Shown here: positions 48,735-60,246 of the stretch, piece by piece
How the letters are laid out: every line of letters begins with the position of its first letter
How positions within the stretch are numbered: position 1 is the first letter of the stretch
Assembly: GCA_049322755.1 (NCBI GenBank)
Contig: JBMOQX010000072.1
Coordinates: 14,662-78,661, forward strand
Source: Pseudomonadota bacterium
GTDB taxonomy: Bacteria; Pseudomonadota; Gammaproteobacteria; Burkholderiales; UBA6910
Direction of reading: 5' to 3'
DNA length: 64,000 bases
Program-made: the position numbers and the translations under genes
The notes under the pieces: generated by a model
Seen by the model: only the letters and a program-made list of their open reading frames with translations
What the model was told of the DNA's origin: nothing
The model's database searches: none

Positions 48735-48791
48735 CCGGGGCGCCGGCCCGGGCAGATTACGATTCACGATTCACCATTGACGGGGTGTGAG

Positions 48792-51700
48792 ATGAGCCAC
48801 TTTCTCGATCGACTGAAGTACTTCACCCAGGACCGGGAGACGTTCTCCGAAGGGCACGGCGTCGTGACCCGGGAGGACCGTACCTGGGAGGACGGCTATC
48901 GCAAGCGCTGGCAGCACGACAAGATCGTGCGCTCCACCCACGGCACGAACTGCACCGGCTCCTGCAGCTGGAAGGTCTACGTGAAGGGCGGCATCGTCAC
49001 CTGGGAGACGCAGCAGACCGACTACCCCCGCACCCGCCCCGACATGCCGAACCACGAGCCGCGCGGCTGCTCGCGGGGCGCCTCCTACAGCTGGTACCTC
49101 TACAGCGCCAACCGCATCAAGTACCCGATGGTGCGCGGCCGGCTGCTGAAGCTGTGGCGCGAGGCGCGCCGCACGCTCAAGCCGGTGGAGGCCTGGGCGT
49201 CCATCGTCGAGGACGCGGCCAAGACCAGGTCCTACAAGTCGCGCCGCGGTTTGGGCGGCTTCGTGCGCTCCACCTGGGATGAAGTCAACGAGCTGGTGGC
49301 CGCGGCCAACGCCTACACGGTGAAGACCCACGGCCCCGACCGGGTCATCGGCTTCTCGCCGATTCCGGCGATGTCGATGGTCTCCTACGCCGCCGGCAGC
49401 CGCTACCTGTCGCTGATCGGCGGCGTGTGCATGAGCTTCTACGACTGGTACTGCGACCTGCCGCCGTCCAGCCCGCAGACCTGGGGCGAGCAGACCGACG
49501 TGCCGGAGTCGGCGGACTGGTACAACTCCACGTTCCTCATCGCCTGGGGCTCCAACGTGCCGCAGACGCGCACGCCGGACGCCCATTTCTTCACCGAGGT
49601 GCGCTACAAGGGCGCCAAGGTGGTGGCGGTGACGCCGGACTACGCCGAGGTCTCCAAGCTCGCCGACCTGTGGATGCATCCCAAGCAGGGCACGGACGCC
49701 GCGATGGCGATGGCGATGGGCCACGTGATCCTCAAGGAGTTCCACGTCGAGCGCCAGGCGCCGTACTTCCAGGACTACGCCCGCCGCTACACCGACCTGC
49801 CGATGCTGGTCCGCCTGGTGAAGCGGGGCCAGCACCTGGTCCCGGACCGGTTCCTGCGTGCCTCGGATTTCGGCGGCAAGCTGGGCCACGCCAACAACCC
49901 GGAATGGAAGACGGTGGCCTTTGACGAGGCATCGAACCAGGTGGTGACGCCCAACGGCTCCATCGGCTTCCGCTGGACCCAGAAGCCCGGCGAGGACCAG
50001 GGCAAGTGGAACCTGGAGGAGAAGGACGGCACGTCGGGGGCCGAGACGAAGCTCGGCCTCACGCTGATCGGCCGCCGCGACGACGTGGCGGGCGTGGCCT
50101 TCCCGTACTTCGGCGGCATCGCCCACGAGCACTTCCGCCACAATGACCAGGGCACCGACATCCTGGTGCGAAATGTGCCGGTCAAGCGGCTGCAGCTGGC
50201 CGACGGCGAGGCACTGGTGGCGACCGTTTACGACCTGCTGGTGGCCAACTACGGCATCGACCGCGGTTTCGGCGGCGGCAGCGTTGCCGGTTCCTACGAC
50301 GAGGACGTGCCCTACACGCCGAAGTGGCAGGAAAAGGTGACGGGCGTTCCCGCCGAGCAGGTGATCACGGTGGCGCGGCAGTTCGCCGACAACGCCGAGA
50401 AGACCCAGGGCAAGTCGATGGTGATCATCGGCGCCGCCATGAATCACTGGTACCACTCCGACATGAACTACCGCGGCATCATCAACATGCTGATGCTGTG
50501 CGGCTGCGTCGGGCAGTCCGGCGGCGGCTGGGCCCATTACGTCGGCCAGGAGAAGCTGCGGCCCCAGACCGGCTGGACCGCGCTGGCGTTCGCGCTCGAC
50601 TGGCACCGGCCGCCGCGGCAGCAGAATTCCACCTCGTTCTTCTACGCCCACACCGACCAGTGGCGCTACGAGAAGCTGAAAGTGAGCGAGGTGCTGAGCC
50701 CGCTGGCGAATCCGGCCGAGATGAGCGGCAGCCTGATCGATTTCAACGTGCGCGCCGAGCGCATGGGCTGGCTGCCGAGCGCGCCGCAGCTGGCGGCGAA
50801 CCCGATCCAGGTGGTCAAGGACGCCCAGGCCGCGGGGATGGATCCCAAGGAATACACGGTCAAGGCGCTCAAGGACGGCAGCCTGCGCCTGTCCTGCGAG
50901 GATCCGGACAATCCGGTGAACTTCCCGCGCAACCTGTTCGTCTGGCGCTCCAATCTGCTGGGCTCCAGCGGCAAGGGCCACGAATACTTCCTCAAGCACC
51001 TGCTGGGCACCCAGCACGGCGTCCAGGGCAAGGACCTGGGCGAGGAGGGCGGCGAGCTGCCGGAGGAAGTGGAGTGGCACGAGGAAGCGCCCAAGGGCAA
51101 GCTGGACCTGCTGGTGACGCTGGACTTCCGCATGTCCACCACCTGCATGTACTCGGACGTGGTGCTGCCCACCGCCACCTGGTACGAGAAGAACGATCTC
51201 AACACCTCCGACATGCACCCGTTCATCCATCCGCTGTCCCAGGCAGTGGACCCGGTGTGGGAGTCGAGGAGCGACTGGGAGATCTACAAGGGCATCGCGA
51301 AGAAGTTTTCCGAGGTCTGCGTCGGACACCTGGGCGTGGAGAAGGAGCTGGTGCTCACGCCGCTGATGCACGACACCCCGGGCGAGCTGGCCCAGGCGCT
51401 GGACGTGCGGGACTGGAAGAAGGGCGAGTGCGACCTGATCCCCGGCAAGACCGCGCCCCAGATGACGGTGATCGAGCGCGACTATCCCAACACCTACAAG
51501 AAGTTCACCGCGCTGGGCCCGCTGATGGCCAAGGCGGGCAACGGCGGCAAGGGCATCGCCTGGAACACCGAGCACGAGGTGAAGAACCTGCTCAACCTCA
51601 ACTACCCGGTGACCGAGGAGGGCATCACCCAGGGGCTGCCGCGCATCGAATCCGACATCGACGCGGCGGAGGTGATCCTGATGCTGGCGCCGGAGACCAA

Positions 51701-52541
51701 CGGCGAGGTGGCGGTGAAGGCCTGGGAGGCGCTCTCGAAGATCACCGGCCGCAGCCACGCGCACCTGGCGTTGCCGAAGGAGGAGGAAAAGATCCGCTTC
51801 CGCGATCTGCAGGCGCAACCGCGCAAGATCATCTCCTCGCCCACCTGGTCGGGGCTGGAGTCGGAGCACGTTTCCTACAACGCCGGCTACACCAACGTCC
51901 ACGAGCTGATCCCCTGGCGCACCCTCACCGGGCGCCAGCAGTTCTACCAGGACCACAAGTGGATGCTGGCGTTCGGCGAGGGCCTGTGCGTGTACCGGCC
52001 CCCGGTGGACGTCAAGGCGGTGGCGCCGATGGCCGGGGTCAAGGGCAACGGCAACCCCGAGGTGGTGCTCAACTTCATCACGCCACACCAGAAATGGGGC
52101 ATCCACTCCACCTACACCGACAACCTGCTGATGCTGACTCTCTCGCGCGGCGGGCCGATCATCTGGCTGTCGGAGGTGGACGCGAGCAAGATCGGCGTCG
52201 AGGACAACGACTGGGTCGAGCTCTACAACGTGAACGGCGCCATCGCGGCGCGGGCGGTGGTGTCGCAGCGGGTCAACGAGGGCATGGTGCTCATGTACCA
52301 CGCCCAGGAGAAGATCGTGAACGTGCCGGGCTCCGAGATCACCGGCTCCCGCGGTGGCATCCACAACTCGGTGACCCGCATCGTCACCAAGCCGACCCAC
52401 ATGATCGGCGGCTACGCCCAGTTGAGCTACGGCTTCAACTACTACGGCACCATCGGCACCAACCGCGACGAGTTCGTCATCGTGCGCAAGATGAAGACGG
52501 TGGACTGGATGGACGAGCCGGTGCAGGCCGAGAACCTTTAA
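48792..52541 (+). CDS. narG: respiratory nitrate reductase alpha subunit
   Basis: MSHFLDRLKYF..., STHGTNCTGSCSWKVYVKGG (FS0 His/Cys motif). ~1249 aa. Confidence 0.97.
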   Translation: MSHFLDRLKYFTQDRETFSEGHGVVTREDRTWEDGYRKRWQHDKIVRSTHGTNCTGSCSWKVYVKGGIVTWETQQTDYPRTRPDMPNHEPRGCSRGASYSWYLYSANRIKYPMVRGRLLKLWREARRTLKPVEAWASIVEDAAKTRSYKSRRGLGGFVRSTWDEVNELVAAANAYTVKTHGPDRVIGFSPIPAMSMVSYAAGSRYLSLIGGVCMSFYDWYCDLPPSSPQTWGEQTDVPESADWYNSTFLIAWGSNVPQTRTPDAHFFTEVRYKGAKVVAVTPDYAEVSKLADLWMHPKQGTDAAMAMAMGHVILKEFHVERQAPYFQDYARRYTDLPMLVRLVKRGQHLVPDRFLRASDFGGKLGHANNPEWKTVAFDEASNQVVTPNGSIGFRWTQKPGEDQGKWNLEEKDGTSGAETKLGLTLIGRRDDVAGVAFPYFGGIAHEHFRHNDQGTDILVRNVPVKRLQLADGEALVATVYDLLVANYGIDRGFGGGSVAGSYDEDVPYTPKWQEKVTGVPAEQVITVARQFADNAEKTQGKSMVIIGAAMNHWYHSDMNYRGIINMLMLCGCVGQSGGGWAHYVGQEKLRPQTGWTALAFALDWHRPPRQQNSTSFFYAHTDQWRYEKLKVSEVLSPLANPAEMSGSLIDFNVRAERMGWLPSAPQLAANPIQVVKDAQAAGMDPKEYTVKALKDGSLRLSCEDPDNPVNFPRNLFVWRSNLLGSSGKGHEYFLKHLLGTQHGVQGKDLGEEGGELPEEVEWHEEAPKGKLDLLVTLDFRMSTTCMYSDVVLPTATWYEKNDLNTSDMHPFIHPLSQAVDPVWESRSDWEIYKGIAKKFSEVCVGHLGVEKELVLTPLMHDTPGELAQALDVRDWKKGECDLIPGKTAPQMTVIERDYPNTYKKFTALGPLMAKAGNGGKGIAWNTEHEVKNLLNLNYPVTEEGITQGLPRIESDIDAAEVILMLAPETNGEVAVKAWEALSKITGRSHAHLALPKEEEKIRFRDLQAQPRKIISSPTWSGLESEHVSYNAGYTNVHELIPWRTLTGRQQFYQDHKWMLAFGEGLCVYRPPVDVKAVAPMAGVKGNGNPEVVLNFITPHQKWGIHSTYTDNLLMLTLSRGGPIIWLSEVDASKIGVEDNDWVELYNVNGAIAARAVVSQRVNEGMVLMYHAQEKIVNVPGSEITGSRGGIHNSVTRIVTKPTHMIGGYAQLSYGFNYYGTIGTNRDEFVIVRKMKTVDWMDEPVQAENL

Positions 52542-52623
52542 CCACGAAGGACGCAATGGACGCAAAGGAAGGACACCCGGAGCTGATGAGCATCCTTGGC
52601 GTCCTTAGCGTCCTTGGCGGTGA
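52541..52623. repeat. imperfect ~80-nt inverted repeat with three tandem 9-mers (tccttggcg tccttagcg tccttggcg) in the narG-narH spacer
   Basis: The 5' arm accacgaaggacgcaatggacgcaaaggaaggac pairs by hand with the 3' arm atccttggcgtccttagcgtccttggcggt. Confidence 0.6.
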
Positions 52624-52643
52624 AAACTCAAGGGGTGCATGAA

Positions 52644-54164
52644 ATGAAAGTACGCGCACAGATCGGCATGGTCCTCAATCTCGACAAGTGCATCGGCTGC
52701 CATACCTGCTCGGTGACCTGCAAGAACGTCTGGACCAACCGCGAGGGCATGGAGTACGCCTGGTTCAACAACGTCGAGACCAAGCCCGGCATCGGCTATC
52801 CCAAGGAGTGGGAGAACCAGGACAAGTGGGACGGCGGCTGGGTGCGCAAGGGCAGCGGCCGCATCGAGCCCAAGCAGGGCAGCAAGTGGCAGATCCTGAT
52901 GAAGATCTTCGCCAACCCGAAGCTGCCCGAGATCGACGACTACTACGAGCCGTTCACGTTCGATTACCAGCACCTGCACAACGCGCCGGATATGAAGACC
53001 GCGCCGGTGGCGCGGCCGCGCAGCCTGATCACCGGCAAACGCATGGAGAAGATCGAGTGGGGCCCCAACTGGGAGGAGATCCTGGGCGGGGAGTTCTCGA
53101 AGCGTTCCAGGGACGCCAACTTCGAGCAGGTGCAGAAGGACATCTACGGCCAGTTCGAGAACACCTTCATGATGTACCTGCCGCGGCTGTGCGAGCACTG
53201 CCTCAACCCCACCTGCGTCGCCTCCTGCCCGTCGGGTTCGATCTACAAGCGCGAGGAGGACGGCATCGTCCTCATCGACCAGGACAAGTGCCGCGGCTGG
53301 CGCATGTGCGTCTCCGGCTGCCCGTACAAGAAGATCTACTACAACTGGTCCACCGGCAAGGCCGAGAAGTGCATCTTCTGCTATCCGCGCATCGAGGCCG
53401 GCCAGCCCACCGTGTGCTCGGAGACCTGCGTCGGGCGCATCCGCTACCTGGGGGTGCTGCTGTACGACGCCGACCGCATCGAGGAGGCCGCCAGCGTCGA
53501 GGACCCGAAATCGTTGTACAAGGCGCAGCTGTCGCTGTTCCTCGACCCGCACGCGCCGGAGGTGCAGGAACAGGCGCGCCGCGACGGCGTGCCGGAGGCC
53601 TGGATCGAGGCCGCACAGGAATCCCCGGTCTACAAGATGGCGATGGACTGGAAAGTGGCGCTGCCGCTGCACCCCGAGTACCGCACGCTGCCGATGGTGT
53701 GGTACGTGCCCCCGCTGTCACCGATCCAGGCCGCCGCCAACGCCGGACAGATCGGCGTCAACGGGGCAATACCCGACGTCGGCGAGCTGCGCATCCCGCT
53801 CAAGTACCTGGCCAACCTGCTCACCGCCGGCGACGAGGCGCCGGTGAAGCGGGCGCTGGAGCGGATGCTGGCGATGCGCGCCTACATGCGCGACAAGCAT
53901 GTCGAGCAGCGCCAGAACCTGGAAGTGCTGCGGCAGGCGGATCTCACGCAGGCCCAGGTGGAGGCGATGTACCGCTACATGGCGATCGCCAACTATGAGG
54001 ACCGCTTCGTGATTCCCACCACGCACCGGGAGTACGCGGAGAACGCCTACGACCTGCGCGGCGGCTGCGGCTTCTCGTTCGGCAACGGCTGCTCCGACGG
54101 ACAGAGCGAGCCCAGCCTGTTCGGGGGCAAGAAGAAGACCATTCCCATCAAATCCATGGCCTAG
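52644..54164 (+). CDS. narH: respiratory nitrate reductase beta subunit
   Basis: MKVRAQIGMVLNLDKCIGCHTCSVTCKNVWT plus further Fe-S Cys clusters. Confidence 0.97.
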   Translation: MKVRAQIGMVLNLDKCIGCHTCSVTCKNVWTNREGMEYAWFNNVETKPGIGYPKEWENQDKWDGGWVRKGSGRIEPKQGSKWQILMKIFANPKLPEIDDYYEPFTFDYQHLHNAPDMKTAPVARPRSLITGKRMEKIEWGPNWEEILGGEFSKRSRDANFEQVQKDIYGQFENTFMMYLPRLCEHCLNPTCVASCPSGSIYKREEDGIVLIDQDKCRGWRMCVSGCPYKKIYYNWSTGKAEKCIFCYPRIEAGQPTVCSETCVGRIRYLGVLLYDADRIEEAASVEDPKSLYKAQLSLFLDPHAPEVQEQARRDGVPEAWIEAAQESPVYKMAMDWKVALPLHPEYRTLPMVWYVPPLSPIQAAANAGQIGVNGAIPDVGELRIPLKYLANLLTAGDEAPVKRALERMLAMRAYMRDKHVEQRQNLEVLRQADLTQAQVEAMYRYMAIANYEDRFVIPTTHREYAENAYDLRGGCGFSFGNGCSDGQSEPSLFGGKKKTIPIKSMA

Positions 54165-54174
54165 GAGAGCGATC

Positions 54175-54858
54175 ATGAACCTGCTGCTCAAGGCGCTGGG
54201 CGCCCTCATCAGCTACCCCGATGCCGATCTGCGCGCGGCGCTTCCCGAAATCGCCGAGGCGGTCGGCGGGGCACGCGCGCTGCCACGCCCGCTCAAGGAG
54301 GACCTCGCCGCGCTGATCGGCGAGATGGCCGCCGCCGATGCGTACGACCTGGAGGAGAACTACGTCGGCCTGTTCGACCGCGGCCGCGCCACGTCGCTGC
54401 ACCTGTTCGAGCACGTGCACGGCGAGTCGCGCGACCGGGGCCAGGCGATGGTGGACCTGCGCTCGGTCTACGCCCGGCACGGCCTGACGCTCGCCGCCAA
54501 CGAGCTGCCCGACTACCTGCCGGCGATGCTGGAGTACCTGGCGCTGGTGCCGGAACCGGAGGCGCGCGACATGCTGGGCGAGTGCGCCCACATCCTGCGC
54601 CGCATCGGCGAGGCCCTGGCGGCCCGCGGCAGCCGCCACAGCGCGGTGTTCGCCGCCCTGCTGGCGGTGGCGGGCGAGAAGGGGCTCGATCCGGCGGCGG
54701 GAACGCAGGCGCTGGCGGCGGAGAAGCCGCTGGACGAGGAATGGGCCGAGGAGCCGGTGATTTTCGGTCCCCAGGCCGCCTGGGGCAGCGGCGCCGCCGG
54801 CTGCGGCGCCCAACCGCAGGTGGCGCCGGTCAATTTCGTTCCCCGGGTTTCCCAGTGA
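54175..54858 (+). CDS. narJ: nitrate reductase molybdenum cofactor assembly chaperone
   Basis: YVGLFDRGRATSLHLFEHVHGESRDRGQAMVDL pattern. Confidence 0.9.
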   Translation: MNLLLKALGALISYPDADLRAALPEIAEAVGGARALPRPLKEDLAALIGEMAAADAYDLEENYVGLFDRGRATSLHLFEHVHGESRDRGQAMVDLRSVYARHGLTLAANELPDYLPAMLEYLALVPEPEARDMLGECAHILRRIGEALAARGSRHSAVFAALLAVAGEKGLDPAAGTQALAAEKPLDEEWAEEPVIFGPQAAWGSGAAGCGAQPQVAPVNFVPRVSQ

Positions 54859-54871
54859 TCAGGAGCACGCC

Positions 54872-55567
54872 ATGAGTTCCGGCCAATACCTCAACCAGTT
54901 TCTCTTCGGGATCTATCCCTACGTTGCGCTCGCCGTGTTCTTTCTCGGCAGCCTGATCCGCTTCGACCGCGAGCAGTACACCTGGCGCAGCGAGTCGTCG
55001 CAGATGCTCAAGACCGGCCAGCTGCGCTGGGGGTCCAACCTGTTCCACATCGGCATCCTGGGCATCTTCTTCGGCCACCTGGTGGGGCTGCTCACGCCGC
55101 TGCCGGTCTGGCACGCGCTGGGCATCGGCGCGCCGGCCAAACAGATGCTGGCCATCGTCGCCGGCGGCGTGTTCGGTCTGCTCTGCCTCGCCGGGCTCGC
55201 GCTGCTGATCAACCGCCGGATCACCGAGCCGCGCATCCGCAGTACCACCAAGACCATGGACTGGGTGATCCTGTTCCTGCTGCTGGGGCAGCTGGTGCTG
55301 GGGCTGGTCTCGATCAACGAGTCGTGGCAGCACCGCGACGGCGGCGAGATGCTCCGCTTCATGGAGTGGGCGCAGCGCATCGTCACTTTCCGCGGCGGCG
55401 CGGCCGACCTGGTGGCGGAGGCGGCGCTGGTCTTCAAGCTGCACCTGGTGCTGGGCATGACCATCTTCCTGGTGTTCCCGTTCTCGCGGCTGGTGCACAT
55501 CTGGAGCGGGTTCGCCGCGGTCACCTATCTGTTCCGGCCGCACCAGGTGGTGCGCACCCGGGGCTGA
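54872..55567 (+). CDS. narI: respiratory nitrate reductase gamma subunit (cytochrome b)
   Basis: 5-TM protein with a LFHIGILGIFFGHLVG haem-ligand region. 231 aa. Confidence 0.93.
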   Translation: MSSGQYLNQFLFGIYPYVALAVFFLGSLIRFDREQYTWRSESSQMLKTGQLRWGSNLFHIGILGIFFGHLVGLLTPLPVWHALGIGAPAKQMLAIVAGGVFGLLCLAGLALLINRRITEPRIRSTTKTMDWVILFLLLGQLVLGLVSINESWQHRDGGEMLRFMEWAQRIVTFRGGAADLVAEAALVFKLHLVLGMTIFLVFPFSRLVHIWSGFAAVTYLFRPHQVVRTRG

Positions 55568-55574
55568 CGGGGCC

Positions 55575-55976
55575 GTGCACAAGCGCAACCGCCAGTTCGT
55601 CGCCGTCGGCCTGGTCTACGGCCTGATCGGAGGGGCGCTGGCGCTCGCGCACCTGCTGGCGCCGGGCGCGATTCCCGGCAACGTGCCCCGGGCCCACGGT
55701 CACCTGATGCTGCTGGGCCTGGTGATGATGACCATCTACGGCGTCGGCCTGCACGTGATCCCGCGCTTCGGCGGCTATCCGCTGCGCTCGGAGCGCATCG
55801 CCAACGCCCAGTTCTGGCTGGCCAACGCCGGCCTGCCGCTGCTGGCAGCGGGTTTCCTGGCGCTGGCGGACTGGCTGGTGGCGCTGGGCGGTGCGCTGAA
55901 CGTCGCCGCGATGGTGCTGTTCGCGTGGAACATGGTGTTCTCGGTGCGGCTGCGCGGGCCGCTGGACGCGCGATGA
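55575..55976 (+). CDS. 4-TM membrane protein, mini-NnrS-like module
   Basis: The GTG at 55575 is 8 nt after the narI stop. The motif AHGHLMLLGLVMMTIYGVGLHVIPRF parallels NnrS WAHGYLMIFGTLPFFIFGFLMTAMPNW at 58338-59627. Confidence 0.6.
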   Translation: MHKRNRQFVAVGLVYGLIGGALALAHLLAPGAIPGNVPRAHGHLMLLGLVMMTIYGVGLHVIPRFGGYPLRSERIANAQFWLANAGLPLLAAGFLALADWLVALGGALNVAAMVLFAWNMVFSVRLRGPLDAR

Positions 55977-56419
55977 GCGAGTACCGCGGCTGCGAGCTGC
56001 CCCCCGATCTCTGGTACGACCTGGACTACTGCTGGGTGCGGCCGGCGGGCGACGGCGTCTACCGCATCGGCATCACCGACCCGTCCCAGACCATGGCCGG
56101 GCGGGTGCAGTATGCCACCATCAAGGACGTCGGCACCCACCGCCGCTGGAAAAAGCCGCTGGCGCGGCTGGAGTCCGGGAAATGGGCGGGCGGGATTCCG
56201 GCGCCGTTCGACGGCACCATCACGGCGCGCAACCCGGCGGTGATGGACAACCCCGGTCTCATCAACGTTGCGCCCTACACCGACGCCTGGCTGGTGGAGA
56301 TGAAGCCCGACGACCCGGCCAGCGCGCTGGAGCATCTCAGCACGGGCGACGAGGCGATCGCAGCGCTGAAGCGCTGGATCGACCGCTACGACGTGCAGTG
56401 CATGCGCTGCATGGACTGA
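55973..56419 (+). CDS. glycine-cleavage H-protein-fold (lipoyl-carrier-like) protein
   Basis: ATGA overlap with the upstream gene. RIGITDPSQTMAGRVQY...LARLESGKWAGGIPAPFDGTI...NPGLINVAPYTDAWLVEM aligns with the GcvH pattern, including the carrier Lys position. C-terminal CMRC. Confidence 0.7.
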   Translation: MSEYRGCELPPDLWYDLDYCWVRPAGDGVYRIGITDPSQTMAGRVQYATIKDVGTHRRWKKPLARLESGKWAGGIPAPFDGTITARNPAVMDNPGLINVAPYTDAWLVEMKPDDPASALEHLSTGDEAIAALKRWIDRYDVQCMRCMD

Positions 56420-56422
56420 TCG

Positions 56423-57214
56423 GTGAAGGATGAACGGGTCATGGTGAAGGGTGAAAAGAGCAGGGCGAGCGGTCCAGGGCAGGGCGCTCGCGCCGCTCCC
56501 GCCCCCAGGCACCACGTTCAACTCCTGGTGTCCGAGTGGTGCCACACCTGCCCCGCCGCCGAGCAGATCTGGCGCCAGGTGGCGCAGGAGCGGGATATCC
56601 GCTTCGCCGTGGTGGACATGGCGCAGTCCGAGGGACGCGAACTGGTGGCGCGGTTGCGGTTGAAGAGCGTGCCGTCGGTGATCGTCGACGGCGCCCTGGC
56701 GGCGGTGGGCGTGCAGTCGCTGACGGAGGCGCGTGCCCTGGTGGCGGATGCGCCGCCGCGCACGAAGGGAGCGGCCTACCACGCGGGCCTCATGCTCTCG
56801 CGCGACAATCGGGCCTTCATCGTCTCGGCCATGGGCTGGCTGGTGGTGGCGGGCGCGCTGATGCTGGCCCACGGGGGCCTGCCGGCGGCGGGCGCGACGC
56901 GGGCGGCGGCGATCCACGCGTTTCTTGCCGGCTTCGTGCTGATGATGATCTTCGGGCTCGCGGCCCACATGGTGCCGCGCTTCACCGGGCTGCCGATCCG
57001 CAGCGGCGGCTGGGCCTGGGGGCAGCTCGCGCTGGCCCATGCCGGCGTGCTCGGCTTCGCCGGCGGGCAGCTGCTCGATGCGCGCGCGCTGGCGCTGGGC
57101 GGCGCTCTGGCGCTGTGGCTCGCGCTGGCGCTGTTCGCCGCGCGGCTGTGGCCGCTGCTGCTGCCGCGCAACGGTGCCGCGGCGGAAGCGCCCAATGGCG
57201 CGGACCCGGAATGA
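56423..57214 (+). CDS. thioredoxin-fold (CxxC) domain fused to a mini-NnrS-like 4-TM module
   Basis: The Trx-like part is LLVSEWCHTCPAAEQIW...LKSVPSVIVDG. The TM region is IHAFLAGFVLMMIFGLAAHMVPRF, homologous to the 55575 gene. Start is the GTG at 56423 or the ATG at 56441. Confidence 0.65.
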   Translation: MKDERVMVKGEKSRASGPGQGARAAPAPRHHVQLLVSEWCHTCPAAEQIWRQVAQERDIRFAVVDMAQSEGRELVARLRLKSVPSVIVDGALAAVGVQSLTEARALVADAPPRTKGAAYHAGLMLSRDNRAFIVSAMGWLVVAGALMLAHGGLPAAGATRAAAIHAFLAGFVLMMIFGLAAHMVPRFTGLPIRSGGWAWGQLALAHAGVLGFAGGQLLDARALALGGALALWLALALFAARLWPLLLPRNGAAAEAPNGADPE

Positions 57215-57681
57215 ACGTCTCCGTCAACGGCGTCACGATCGACGCCGCCGCCATCGAACGCGAAAGCCGTCGGTATGAGGGGGCGCCGGACCCGCTCGCG
57301 GTGGCGGCGGTCTGGCTCGCGGTGCAGGAGCTGCTGTTGCAGCGGGCGCGGGCGCTGGGCATCGCGGGCGAGGGCGACGAGGACACCGTGGAGCGGCTGC
57401 TGGAGCGGGAAGTGCCGGTGCCGGTGGCCACCGACGCCGAATGTCGCCGCTACTACGACGGCCACCCGGAGCGCTTCCGCCACGGCTTCCACGTGATCGA
57501 GGTGCTGCGCCGGGTGGAGGGCGAACTGGCGCCGTTCGAGGAGGTGCGCGATGAAATCGCCGCCCGCCTGCACGACGGCGCGCTGCGCCGCGCGCTGGCG
57601 CAGTACGTGCAGCTGCTGGCGGGCAGCGCCCGGGTGGAGGGGATCGACCTGCTGCGGGCGGATTCGCCGCTGGTGCAGTAA
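57211..57681 (+). CDS. SurA/PpiC-family chaperone-like protein lacking an evident rotamase core (156 aa)
   Basis: ATGA overlap at 57211-57214. The ends resemble nar-linked PpiC/NifM-like proteins (VNGVTIDAAAIERE...; ...FEEVRDEIAARL...). The parvulin domain appears to be missing. Confidence 0.55.
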   Translation: MNVSVNGVTIDAAAIERESRRYEGAPDPLAVAAVWLAVQELLLQRARALGIAGEGDEDTVERLLEREVPVPVATDAECRRYYDGHPERFRHGFHVIEVLRRVEGELAPFEEVRDEIAARLHDGALRRALAQYVQLLAGSARVEGIDLLRADSPLVQ

Positions 57682-57688
57682 CCATGCC

Positions 57689-58357
57689 ATGACGGAGCTC
57701 GACGACGAGATCCTGGCGCGGCTCAAGCGCTTCCACTTCGGCAGCTTCCGCCGCTTCCGGCGCCAGTTCCGCGAGCTGGTGGATCAGGGCCAGCACCCGA
57801 CGACGCTGTTCATCAGCTGCTCGGACTCGCGCATCGTGCCCAACCTGCTGCTGGACTGCGGCCCCGGCGAGCTGTTCGTGGTGCGCAACGCCGGCAACTT
57901 CGTTCCGCCGTGGGACGCCTCCGCGGGCTACCATGGCACCACGGCGTCCATCGAGTTCGCGGTGCTGCAGCTCCAGGTGCGGCACATCGTGCTCTGCGGC
58001 CACAGCCACTGCGGCGCGGTCAAGGCGCTCTATCACGAGCTGCCGGCGCAGGCGCACCATTTGCGGTACTGGCTTACGCTGGGGCGCGACGCCGTGCTGC
58101 CGGTGACTGGCTCCGATGAAGCGTATTTCCGCACCGAGCAGCGCTCGGTGGCGCTGCAGCTCACGCGGCTGCTGGACTACCCGATGGTGCGGGAGCGGGT
58201 CGAGCGCGGCGAGCTGTCCGTGCACGGCTGGCATTACCTGATCGAGGAGGGCAAGGTTCTGATGCTGGATCTGGAGTCGGGGACGTTCGAGCCGTTCGAG
58301 ACGGTAGTGGCGCGTGCCGATCAGGAGCACCTGCGCGATGTCAACCCGCTCATGTGA
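57689..58357 (+). CDS. beta-class carbonic anhydrase
   Basis: SCSDSRIVP, FVVRNAGN and GHSHCGAV zinc-ligand motifs. Confidence 0.88.
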   Translation: MTELDDEILARLKRFHFGSFRRFRRQFRELVDQGQHPTTLFISCSDSRIVPNLLLDCGPGELFVVRNAGNFVPPWDASAGYHGTTASIEFAVLQLQVRHIVLCGHSHCGAVKALYHELPAQAHHLRYWLTLGRDAVLPVTGSDEAYFRTEQRSVALQLTRLLDYPMVRERVERGELSVHGWHYLIEEGKVLMLDLESGTFEPFETVVARADQEHLRDVNPLM

Positions 58358-59627
58358 ACCGGCCGCCCGCGGCGGCGCGCCGCGCCGGCCGCAGCGACGC
58401 AGCGCGGCGGCGGTATGGCGGCAGCTGACCGCGGCGCCCCACCGCATCCTGTTTTTCTGCGGCATGCTGCAGCTGCTGGCGGCGATGGCCTGGTGGCTCG
58501 CCAACCTGCTCGGACGCTACGGCGGGCTCTACACGCCGCCGGTGCTGGCGGCGCCGCCCGGATGGGCCCACGGCTACCTGATGATCTTCGGCACCCTGCC
58601 GTTCTTCATCTTCGGCTTTCTCATGACCGCCATGCCCAACTGGCTGGGTGAAGGCCGCGTGCCGCGCCCGGCCTATCTCGCGTGCGCCGGGCTGATGGCG
58701 GCGGGCGTCGCGGCGTTCTACGCGGCGGTGGCAATTTCGCCCTGGCTGGCGGCGGCCGCCGTGCTGGTGCAGCTCGCCGGCTGGATCGTCGGGTGGGTCG
58801 CGCTGGCGCGGCTGAGCGCGCGCGCGGCGCGGCCCGAGCGGCGCTACCCGGCGATCATGCTGAGCGTGACCGCGGTGGGCGCGGCGCTGCTGGCGGCGTT
58901 CGCCGTCGGCGTTGCCCGCCTGGACCCGGCGTGGGTCGCCGCGGCGCTGCGCGGCGGGCTCTGGTGGTTCCTGCTGCCGGTGTTCTTCAACGTCAGCCAT
59001 CGCATGATTCCGTTTTTCAGCAGCCGCGCGCTTCCCGGCTATCCCGTGATCCGGCCTCCGTGGACAGTGCCGATGTTCACCGCCGGATCGCTGCTGCGGG
59101 GCGTGCTGGAGCTCGCCGGCTCGGCGCCGGCGCTGCTCCTCGTCGCTGACGGCCTGATGCTGCTGCCGGTGGCGTACCTGACGGCGCGCTGGCGCGGCTG
59201 GCGCGCCGGCGGTGTGCGCCTGCTGGCGGTGCTGCACCTGGGCTTTGCGATGCTCGCCGTCGCGCTGGTGCTGTTCCTGGTGCAGGACGTGGCAGCGCTG
59301 CGCGGTCATGCCGTGCTGGGCCATGCGCCGGCCCACGCGCTCACCATCGGTTACTTTTCCGCCATGCTGGTGGCCATGGTGTCGCGGGTGACGCTGGGGC
59401 ACTCGGGGCGGCCGCTCGAGGCGGACGCGGTGATCTGGGGCTGCTTCCTCGCGGTGCTGGCGACCGCCGCGCTGCGCATCGCCGCCGAGCTGCCGGGGGT
59501 GCCGGCGGAAGCGCGCGCGATGCTGATGTGGCTGGCGGCCCTCGCGTGGCTGCTGGCGCTGCTGCCGTGGGTGGTGGCGTACCTGCCGGTTTACCTCGCG
59601 CCGCGGGTCGACGGCCGGCCGGGTTGA
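58338..59627 (+). CDS. nnrS: NnrS-family haem/copper membrane protein
   Basis: PHRILFFCGMLQLLAAMAWW. Multiple TM segments with conserved His (WAHGYLMIFG; HAPAHALTIGYFSAMLVAMVSRVTLGH). An alternative start lies at 58314. Confidence 0.85.
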   Translation: MSTRSCEPAARGGAPRRPQRRSAAAVWRQLTAAPHRILFFCGMLQLLAAMAWWLANLLGRYGGLYTPPVLAAPPGWAHGYLMIFGTLPFFIFGFLMTAMPNWLGEGRVPRPAYLACAGLMAAGVAAFYAAVAISPWLAAAAVLVQLAGWIVGWVALARLSARAARPERRYPAIMLSVTAVGAALLAAFAVGVARLDPAWVAAALRGGLWWFLLPVFFNVSHRMIPFFSSRALPGYPVIRPPWTVPMFTAGSLLRGVLELAGSAPALLLVADGLMLLPVAYLTARWRGWRAGGVRLLAVLHLGFAMLAVALVLFLVQDVAALRGHAVLGHAPAHALTIGYFSAMLVAMVSRVTLGHSGRPLEADAVIWGCFLAVLATAALRIAAELPGVPAEARAMLMWLAALAWLLALLPWVVAYLPVYLAPRVDGRPG

Positions 59628-59673: not shown

Positions 59674-60246
59674 ATGGGATCGGTGAGCCTGGGAAGTCTC
59701 GGAACCAAGACGGCGGCGGCCGGGTTCGACGAGCCGCTGGCGCTGCTGCAGGGCTGCCACGAGCGCATCGCGCAGCGCTGCGACCTGCTGCTGCGGCTGG
59801 CGGATCACGTCGCCACCCACGGGCCCGACGCCGAGGCGGCGCTCGCCGCCACGGGGCTGCTGCGCTATTTCCGCGACGCCGGCGTCAAGCACCACGAGGA
59901 TGAGGAGCAGGACCTGTTCCCGATGCTGCTGGCGGCGGTGCCGGCCGGGGAGCGGGGTGCGGCGGCGGAACTGGTGGACGCGCTGGTGGCCGAGCACCGC
60001 GTGATGGCGGCGGCGTGGGCCGAGCTCGAAGCGCAGCTGGCGCTGCTGGCGCAGAACCGGGCGGCGGCGCTGCCGGCGGAGCAGGCGGCGCGGTTCGCCG
60101 CGCTGTACGCGGAGCATATTGTCCGGGAGGAGGATGCGCTGCTGCCGCTGGCGCGCCGCGTGCTGGACGCGAAAACCCTCGACCGTCTGGGCGCGGCCAT
60201 GGCCGCGCGCCGCGGGGTCAGGCGGGAGCCGGCTCGCGCCCGTTGA
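59674..60246 (+). CDS. hemerythrin (HHE cation-binding) domain protein
   Basis: LLQGCHERI..., HHEDEEQDLFPML, EHRVM and EHIVREEDALLP His/Glu ligand patterns. Confidence 0.8.
   Translation: MGSVSLGSLGTKTAAAGFDEPLALLQGCHERIAQRCDLLLRLADHVATHGPDAEAALAATGLLRYFRDAGVKHHEDEEQDLFPMLLAAVPAGERGAAAELVDALVAEHRVMAAAWAELEAQLALLAQNRAAALPAEQAARFAALYAEHIVREEDALLPLARRVLDAKTLDRLGAAMAARRGVRREPARAR

Follow-up and report, generated by a model that had tools for sequence, protein, structure and literature searches.

The 64,000-nucleotide stretch of DNA analysed here (the window), from a bacterium of the Burkholderiales, carries three small genes directly 3′ of the genes for respiratory nitrate reductase. The first, open reading frame 133 (ORF133), encodes a free-standing module of four transmembrane (TM) helices, the second a lipoate-binding protein of the LbpA type, and the third a thioredoxin (Trx) domain fused to another 4-TM module (the Trx-4TM fusion). 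An earlier reading, made from the sequence alone, had placed the two outer genes (both on the + strand) correctly and left the middle gene unused; that gene encodes an LbpA-type lipoyl carrier and ties the group to sHdr sulfur oxidation. Together the three form a conserved cassette, with the order ORF133, LbpA-type, Trx-4TM kept in about 64 of 66 loci. The features of the cassette in the window are as follows.

55575..55976, + strand: ORF133, free-standing 4-TM module of the 'HxH' type, haem-copper-oxidase subunit I / NnrS superfamily (AlphaFold2 model, PDB fold matches)
55695-55703, + strand: H41 and H43 of ORF133
55752-55754, + strand: H60 of ORF133
55973..56419, + strand: LbpA-type lipoate-binding protein, GcvH fold, 148 residues (Pfam GCV_H 3e-31)
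56441..57214, + strand: Trx-4TM fusion, 257 residues by public gene call (ATG at 56441), alternative GTG start at 56423
56510..56740, + strand: Thioredoxin_3 domain of the fusion (Pfam PF13192), predicted cytoplasmic, invariant W-C-H-T-C
56540-56551, + strand: C34 and C37 of the fusion
56792..57169, + strand: 4-TM module of the fusion, 'xxH' type; H159 and H176 (257-residue numbering) correspond to H43 and H60 of ORF133

The three proteins of the cassette

ORF133 opens on a GTG codon 7 nucleotides past the narI stop, and its homologues likewise open with MH(K/R)RN, while the ATG of the LbpA-type gene overlaps the ORF133 stop codon (ATGA). Homologues of the two membrane proteins form 179 (ORF133) and 63 (fusion) protein clusters at 45-91% identity to the query, mostly from Burkholderiales, with other Gammaproteobacteria and one alphaproteobacterium among the hosts. 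Because of these numbers and the fixed gene order, ORF133 and the fusion are genuine genes and not fragments. Public annotation names some of the ORF133 homologues 'cbb3-type cytochrome c oxidase subunit I'; 'hypothetical' and 'thioredoxin family protein' also occur among the homologues.

The sequence-only reading took the two 4-TM modules to be paralogous, and this is borne out at both the sequence and the profile level. BLASTP aligns 97 residues of ORF133 with the C-terminal half of the fusion at 36% identity (E = 3e-12), and the two family profiles, built from 39 and 41 sequences, align by hhalign at a probability of 99.1% (E = 7.7e-19) over 120 columns that span all four helices. Across 56 jointly aligned sequences the residues that never vary, in ORF133 numbering, are H43, G48, H60, R64, F65, G93 and G105. 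Conservation of the histidines and of the CxxC motif had been named as a check on the earlier proposal: two histidines are invariant in both families, the third (H41) in the ORF133 family only, and C34 and C37 of W-C-x-x-C throughout the 41 sequences of the fusion family.

AlphaFold2 (AF2) models place helices at residues 3-28, 37-66, 73-96 and 99-123 of ORF133, with a predicted local distance difference test (pLDDT) score of 91.4, and give the fusion (87.8) an N-terminal thioredoxin fold followed by four long helices. The Trx domain passes the Pfam PF13192 cut-off of 24.8 bits with a score of 36 and finds the PDB thioredoxin 1fo5 at 1.8e-7; its fold matches are also thioredoxins. With the family threshold passed, the fold in place and a redox CxxC present, the domain belongs to Thioredoxin_3. 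The earlier placement of this domain in the cytoplasm agrees with the positive-inside rule, as the fusion has 5 lysines and arginines inside and 1 outside (ORF133 is comparable). A signal peptide is absent from both the fusion and the LbpA-type protein, and the Trx domain and the lipoyl carrier are both predicted to be cytoplasmic.

The protein encoded between the two modules has the GcvH fold (PF01597, 3e-31), a lipoyl-lysine motif ESGKW (K70), an N-terminal cysteine (C7) and a C-terminal C-M-R-C (C143 and C146). At least 90% of 67 orthologues keep E-S-G-K-W, the N-terminal cysteine within E-Y-x-G-C, and C-M-R-C. A conserved lysine combined with cysteines near both termini, which are absent in GcvH, is the hallmark of LbpA proteins (PMC6067878; bioRxiv 10.64898/2026.10.01.755906), and lipoylation, for which sLpl(AB), LipS1 and LipS2 are the enzymes in the sHdr system, is predicted. 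The cassette proteins group as one clade (66 rows, SH-aLRT support 93), sister to proteobacterial LbpA1 (support 88), in a quick maximum-likelihood tree, with the two GcvH proteins of this genome on long separate branches and LbpA2 also elsewhere; the protein thus groups with LbpA over GcvH. The possibility that it is an ordinary GcvH was ruled out, as it falls below the NCBIfam GcvH cut-offs, bears the LbpA signature, and is accompanied in the genome by two other GcvH-like genes.

The oxidase subunit I / NnrS superfamily

Haem-copper-oxidase subunit I and NnrS form a superfamily with a 12-helix fold, of which ORF133 and the fusion each contain a single 4-helix unit, a quarter to a third of the whole in size. 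The sequence-only reading had called them 'mini-NnrS', and the part of that name that holds is the single 4-helix unit of a 12-helix fold; neither protein belongs to the Pfam NnrS family. Against the PF05940 threshold of 28 bits, the fusion reaches 15.3 bits (E = 0.013), over profile positions 253-370 only, and ORF133 gives no match. NnrS proteins have about 400 residues and twelve TM helices in three 4-helix repeats, compared with four helices per AF2 model here. What the modules share with the NnrS repeats is the 4-helix unit with a histidine at the start of helix 2.

The pattern that had been noticed in common with the NnrS encoded downstream is weak in pairwise comparison (E = 0.003, AHGHLM... 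versus AHGYLM...), and the fusion aligns with that NnrS at three places about 125 residues apart, all at E >= 0.055. A comparison of hidden Markov models (HMMs) with NnrS had been suggested as the test of the relationship, and its outcome depends on the breadth of the profile. The narrow profiles fail: hhalign against an NnrS alignment gives 1.9% for the ORF133 family and 20% for the fusion family, and the narrow module HMM matches none of 120 NnrS proteins. A second-iteration profile from 209 module instances matches 97 of the 120, with a best E = 7e-11 for a notional million-sequence database. In hhalign, the broadened profile scores 93% with NnrS repeat 1, 87% with NnrS repeat 3 and 95.5% with the CcoN of this genome. 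Within the genome of this bacterium, the broadened profile finds CcoN at 6e-17 and NnrS at 2.4e-3.

The gap that the narrow profiles leave is bridged solely by the second-iteration profile and by natural intermediates, the Trx-NnrS proteins. The fusion is collinear with one of these, P0440, in a single BLASTP alignment (E = 3e-31, 221 columns) that runs from Trx through the linker into NnrS repeat 1, and the link between fusion and NnrS that had been read from sequence is upheld on this basis. In four metagenome loci, which represent two Trx-NnrS protein clusters, an LbpA gene of the cassette type lies directly 5′ of the Trx-NnrS gene. The LbpA-type proteins at these loci end ...WIDRYGVVCMRC. 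A Trx-NnrS preceded by a cassette-type LbpA may be the unsplit version of the same machine. In addition, a 48-residue called gene lies just 5′ of the LbpA-type gene in four of the four Trx-NnrS loci, on either strand (L119:6289-6435, L120:171-317, L121:6302-6448 and L122:2720-2866).

For ORF133, the nearest structures are oxidases. All of the top 50 Foldseek matches in the PDB are subunit I of aa3, ba3, bo3 or cbb3 oxidases, at query-normalised TM-scores of 0.54-0.76, so that ORF133 has the fold of one subunit I pseudo-repeat. Against Pfam COX1 (PF00115) it scores 25.5 bits (E = 7.4e-6), below the gathering threshold of 34.8. The ORF133 family profile finds PDB cbb3 CcoN at E = 1.3e-4, most strongly on helices IX-XII, where HGH falls on the helix-X H-x-H, and matches the remaining two CcoN pseudo-repeats weakly; the sequence ...H-x-I-P-(K/R)-x-F-G is also common to the module and CcoN. 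The helix-X H-x-H of oxidases ligates two haems. With its four helices, ORF133 has the equivalent of this H-x-H only and lacks the CuB/FeB histidine triad of a binuclear centre. In sum, the module lies between the oxidase and NnrS families, somewhat nearer to the C-type oxidases; 'mini-NnrS' is a fair name for the fusion, and 'mini oxidase subunit I' a fairer one for ORF133.

A profile search of 1.84 billion representative proteins returned 1949 relatives. The joint alignment used for it (A3, 229 positions) kept the Trx columns, and the matches therefore include stand-alone thioredoxins; they were sorted by matched profile range and then re-scored with a module-only HMM. Re-scored relatives of more than 250 residues contain one, two or three tandem modules. 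Of ten relatives scanned with Pfam, nine match COX1 and four of these also match NnrS (P0212 weakly), and the tenth, P0213, consists of Trx_3 and a full NnrS. Three of the scanned relatives bear ScdA_N or DUF1858 domains. Numbered back from the invariant glycine, the histidine at -5 (H43) is near-universal across the superfamily and that at -7 (H41) occurs chiefly in first modules. Natural two-module proteins have the order [HxH]-[xxH], as in ORF133 followed by the fusion.

Two further relatives of the module lie on the contig that carries the cassette (C72). About 20 kb past the end of the window, on the minus strand (C72:98510-100540), a three-module (12-TM) relative of ORF133 is apparently split across two frames, with one module in frame 98510-100540 and two in 98809-99603, which suggests a frameshift or an assembly error. 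At C72:110619-112319 lies a divergent oxidase subunit I relative (Pfam COX1, 37 bits) whose last four helices match the module profile at 95%; it may belong to a less-studied family of NO-reductase-like oxidases.

Genomic context and the sHdr system

The cassette is restricted to bacteria with the sHdr-LbpA system, and the co-occurrence within the same genome is near-absolute. An orthologue of sHdrB is found in 32 of 33 cassette genomes, in 31 of them at 66-92% identity; in genome G024, the 32nd, the match is partial and contains an internal stop. Among about 300 high-quality genomes sampled evenly across the class, 21 encode sHdrB, and the full-length fusion is present in 13 of these 21 as compared with 0 of 279 sHdrB-negative genomes (Fisher p = 1e-17). 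Twelve of the 25 carriers searched have the cassette LbpA as their sole LbpA1-type protein, their shdr cluster containing LbpA2 only. These carriers (G013, G016, G017, G019, G021, G023, G025-G028, G030 and G033), whose sHdrB is 66-70% identical to that of the present genome, make up a separate subtype of sHdr that relies on the cassette protein as its sole carrier of the LbpA1 type.

The bacterium studied here has a full type-I-like shdr cluster (contig C7:46304-54606) with hdrC, hdrB, lbpA1, dsrE, lbpA2 and two LipS-type radical-SAM genes, and it is for this reason likely to be a sulfur oxidiser that also respires nitrate. Published LbpA1 and LbpA2 genes both lie inside the shdr cluster (PMC6067878; PMC6382920), while the cassette of this genome is found neither in nor beside it, being on contig C72. 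The only candidate traces of the cassette in the papers searched are a third, uncharacterised LbpA of Thioalkalivibrio K90mix (TK90_1746) and a 'trx' in a gene map (bioRxiv 10.64898/2026.10.01.755906). Aquificae shdr clusters have the order hdrC-hdrB-lbpA1-trx-dsrE-lbpA2. The stand-alone Trx encoded there (95 residues) and the Trx domain of the fusion have 47% identity, and the fusion is the only strong match (3e-20) of this Trx in the present genome.

Regulatory sites upstream of the cassette point to anaerobic control. An FNR/Dnr box (TTGAT-N4-ATCAA, at most 1 mismatch, within 260 nucleotides upstream) precedes the cassette in 32 of 64 loci, mostly 47-85 nucleotides ahead of the start codon, and occurs in 1.9% of control windows. 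Beyond the three genes, clustering of the neighbours yields only Crp/Fnr-type regulators and hemerythrin-domain genes as recurrent; one antisense neighbour cluster was discarded as spurious, a product of ORF picking in high-GC DNA. Five sampled genomes, four of them sHdrB-positive, have only a stand-alone Trx homologue, with a hemerythrin nearby in four of the five and an LbpA-type gene in two. The hemerythrin has weak RIC/DnrN-type matches. No other extra gene accompanies the LbpA-type and Trx genes as regularly (L001, L008, L009, L023-L045, L081, L082 and L123-L126), and the hemerythrin occurs with them even in the absence of the membrane modules. In Thioalkalivibrio it is transcribed divergently, and a single locus has it joined to a TehB-like domain. 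At L082:9474-10004, in a complete genome, a 176-residue ORF without a Pfam match lies between the LbpA-type and Trx-4TM genes.

Around the cassette in the window, the genes on the + strand include the following.

48777..55567, + strand: narGHJI, respiratory nitrate reductase, directly 5′ of the cassette and outside it
48777-52541, + strand: narG
52596-54164, + strand: narH
54175-54858, + strand: narJ
54872-55567, + strand: narI
57211-57681, + strand: gene for a peptidyl-prolyl isomerase (PPIase)-like protein, ATGA overlap with the Trx-4TM gene
58338..59627, + strand: canonical 12-TM NnrS, 429 residues by gene call (Pfam PF05940 5e-67, 227 bits), context in the co-oriented gene chain, 1.1 kb downstream
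59674..60246, + strand: hemerythrin-domain protein with weak RIC/DnrN-type matches, a recurrent cassette neighbour in other genomes

The PPIase-like protein matches PPIase families at its ends only (Rotamase_2, E = 0.002, last 23 profile positions), and between its gene and NnrS lies a gene for a beta-carbonic anhydrase (+ strand). Only about 5 of the 66 cassette loci lie beside nar, and a role of the cassette as a nitrate-reductase accessory was rejected on this ground. The literature searched (NnrS with oxidase homology, GcvH or thioredoxin) describes neither the cassette nor its membrane modules, and reports no connection of the cassette with NnrS.

Proposed function and comparison with known systems

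In oxidases, the low-spin haem sits between the helix-II histidine and the second histidine of helix X, which belong to the second helices of two different pseudo-repeats. Because of this arrangement, ORF133 and the fusion are proposed to bind haem between them. The two proteins would assemble side by side, like oxidase helices II and X or NnrS repeats 1 and 3, and at least one b-type haem would be held between the histidines at the periplasmic end of helix 2 (H41 and H43 of ORF133, H159 of the fusion). On the cytoplasmic side, the lipoyl dithiol of the LbpA-type protein would exchange with the CxxC of the tethered Trx domain, which is expected at the cytoplasmic face of the haem-binding helices, and reducing equivalents would pass between the lipoyl/CxxC dithiol pair and the haem. 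Such a complex would connect the sHdr lipoyl/dithiol pool with a haem site in the membrane while cells grow without oxygen, respire nitrate and are exposed to NO. The preferred direction would be from dihydrolipoyl-LbpA through Trx and haem to quinone or a nitrogen oxide, in anoxic growth on sulfur compounds; the direction of the electrons, the substrate and the final acceptor are all putative.

On the sequence evidence, a thiol relay to a membrane site, as the sequence-only reading proposed, remains the best reading. The specific form favoured here, an anaerobically expressed dithiol-to-haem relay that links lipoyl-LbpA to the membrane, is given a rough probability of 0.55. A broader version is doubtful and put forward tentatively. 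In this version the cassette would provide the connection to the membrane that has been missing from the sHdr-LbpA pathway, as a dihydrolipoyl-LbpA:haem (quinone or nitrogen-oxide) oxidoreductase built from two free-standing pseudo-repeats of the oxidase/NnrS fold and a tethered thioredoxin, and NnrS would by extension be a thiol- or lipoyl-dependent haem oxidoreductase. If this were true, the long-unexplained NO-regulon protein NnrS would gain a defined electron donor.

Several points weigh against the relay. Its weakest link is the passage of electrons from a two-electron dithiol to a one-electron haem without a flavin, an Fe-S cluster or a membrane cysteine; the membrane parts of both ORF133 and the fusion are devoid of cysteine, and to our knowledge a dithiol-to-haem step of this kind has no close precedent. 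Haem binding is predicted solely from the alignment of the histidines, and the 8- or 12-helix hetero-oligomer of ORF133 and fusion is likewise putative. The link to sHdr is a phylogenetic profile, neither physical nor genetic, and the LbpA tree is the product of a quick rather than a careful search. Finally, the NO-type context, with NnrS, hemerythrin and relatives that bear ScdA_N or DUF1858, fits protection as well as electron exit.

This last point is the core of an alternative that explains the cassette nearly as well, namely a pure nitrosative-stress device of the NnrS kind, through which electrons of sulfur oxidation are not sent to respiration. The LbpA and Trx dithiols would feed a membrane haem that binds or reduces NO, or would denitrosylate thiols and shield the lipoyl and Fe-S cofactors of sHdr; the restriction to sHdr organisms would then reflect an energy metabolism that depends on an exposed dithiol cofactor. 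A canonical NnrS and the hemerythrin stand in the same gene chain, the hemerythrin recurs as a neighbour even of the stand-alone Trx, FNR/Dnr boxes and Crp/Fnr-type regulators accompany the cassette, and the domains fused to some module relatives, ScdA_N and DUF1858, are those of NO-linked iron-centre repair proteins. NnrS reportedly protects iron-dependent metabolism from NO in Vibrio cholerae, which also counts for this alternative. The NorR regulon of that species has been described (PMC3345576). By itself, however, protection leaves unexplained why the fusion is absent from all 279 sampled sHdr-negative genomes, many of which presumably meet NO too, and why the cassette LbpA is the sole LbpA1-type protein in many carriers. 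A stress device is regarded as a possibility of some weight, though not a probable one.

It is unlikely that the cassette handles cofactors or metals instead, with the CxxC of the Trx domain, the LbpA-type CxxC and the membrane histidines passing Cu, Fe, haem or sulfur to NarGHI, NnrS or molybdenum cofactor sulfuration and with no electron transport. In favour of handling, both haem and copper have been described in NnrS, and the cassette genes of the window are translationally chained to narGHJI and then to a chaperone-like PPIase relative. A third point in favour is an LbpA1-like gene of Roseovarius, which lies 3′ of formate dehydrogenase and cofactor-sulfuration genes (bioRxiv 10.64898/2026.10.01.755906). 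Yet the scarcity of cassette loci beside nar speaks against NarGHI as the general partner, the Trx domain is an ordinary redox-type Thioredoxin_3, and the conserved histidines align with oxidase haem ligands rather than with known transport sites. That the two small ORFs are decayed, functionless remnants of a broken oxidase or NnrS gene could be suspected from their shortness, their sub-threshold Pfam scores and the frameshifted three-module gene elsewhere on the contig. This reading is effectively refuted by conservation and must be considered highly improbable: the 179 and 63 clusters are of constant length, with invariant His and Cys residues and a fixed order in three classes of Proteobacteria, both AF2 models have high confidence, and the gene junctions overlap.

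Many denitrifiers and pathogens have NnrS, which NO induces and whose reaction and redox partners are unexplained. The conserved pairing of a lipoyl carrier gene with one for a thioredoxin that is joined to NnrS or to mini-NnrS points to two testable partners, the first concrete candidates for a redox role beside NnrS-type proteins. Published sHdr-LbpA models are wholly cytoplasmic and end at NAD+ via dihydrolipoamide dehydrogenase, and a putative membrane haem module that is linked to LbpA, under anaerobic control and confined to sHdr organisms points to a branch of the pathway that has gone unrecognised. The existence of one-, two- and three-module proteins also presents the 12-helix fold of oxidases and NnrS as built from 4-helix units that are still used singly, which bears on the origin of haem-copper oxidases.

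Among known systems, NnrS (PF05940) is a 12-TM haem/copper membrane protein of NO-responsive regulons. It shares with the cassette the helical repeat unit, with a histidine at the start of the second helix in NnrS repeats 1 and 3, the collinearity of its Trx-fused form with the fusion, the preceding cassette-type LbpA gene, and the anaerobic or NO-type genomic context. The cassette differs in having four helices per protein rather than twelve, spread over two genes, and in the oxidase-type H-x-H of ORF133, which is missing in NnrS. Subunit I of haem-copper oxidases and NO reductases (PF00115) resembles ORF133 in its fold and in the coincidence of HGH with the H-x-H of CcoN helix X, and the profile matches all three CcoN pseudo-repeats. 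However, ORF133 has one third of the length, no CuB/FeB histidine triad, and no partner subunits II/III or CcoO/P, and cannot by itself be an oxidase.

The sHdr-LbpA system, with LbpA1 and LbpA2 (Cao et al., 2018, PMC6067878; Tanabe et al., 2024, PMC11094781), is alike in the LbpA hallmarks of the middle gene and, in Aquificae, in an lbpA1 that is followed by a homologous stand-alone Trx. Unlike its components, the proteobacterial cassette is encoded apart from the shdr cluster, half of its upstream regions carry an FNR/Dnr box, and its LbpA is paired with membrane modules that are absent from published sHdr models. The Lpd-DlaT-AhpD-AhpC relay of Mycobacterium tuberculosis defends against reactive nitrogen and oxygen species and uses a dihydrolipoyl group on a protein to reduce the CxxC of another, thioredoxin-like one. 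That relay is related to the cassette in the lipoyl domain only, and it differs in being entirely soluble, in ending at a peroxiredoxin and in having no membrane haem partner. Bacterial VKOR-Trx fusions and DsbB combine a four-helix membrane bundle with a thioredoxin-fold domain and pass electrons from dithiols to a membrane redox pool. They do so with membrane-embedded cysteines, directly to quinone and on the periplasmic side, whereas the cassette has conserved histidines in place of membrane cysteines and a Trx domain that is predicted to be cytoplasmic.

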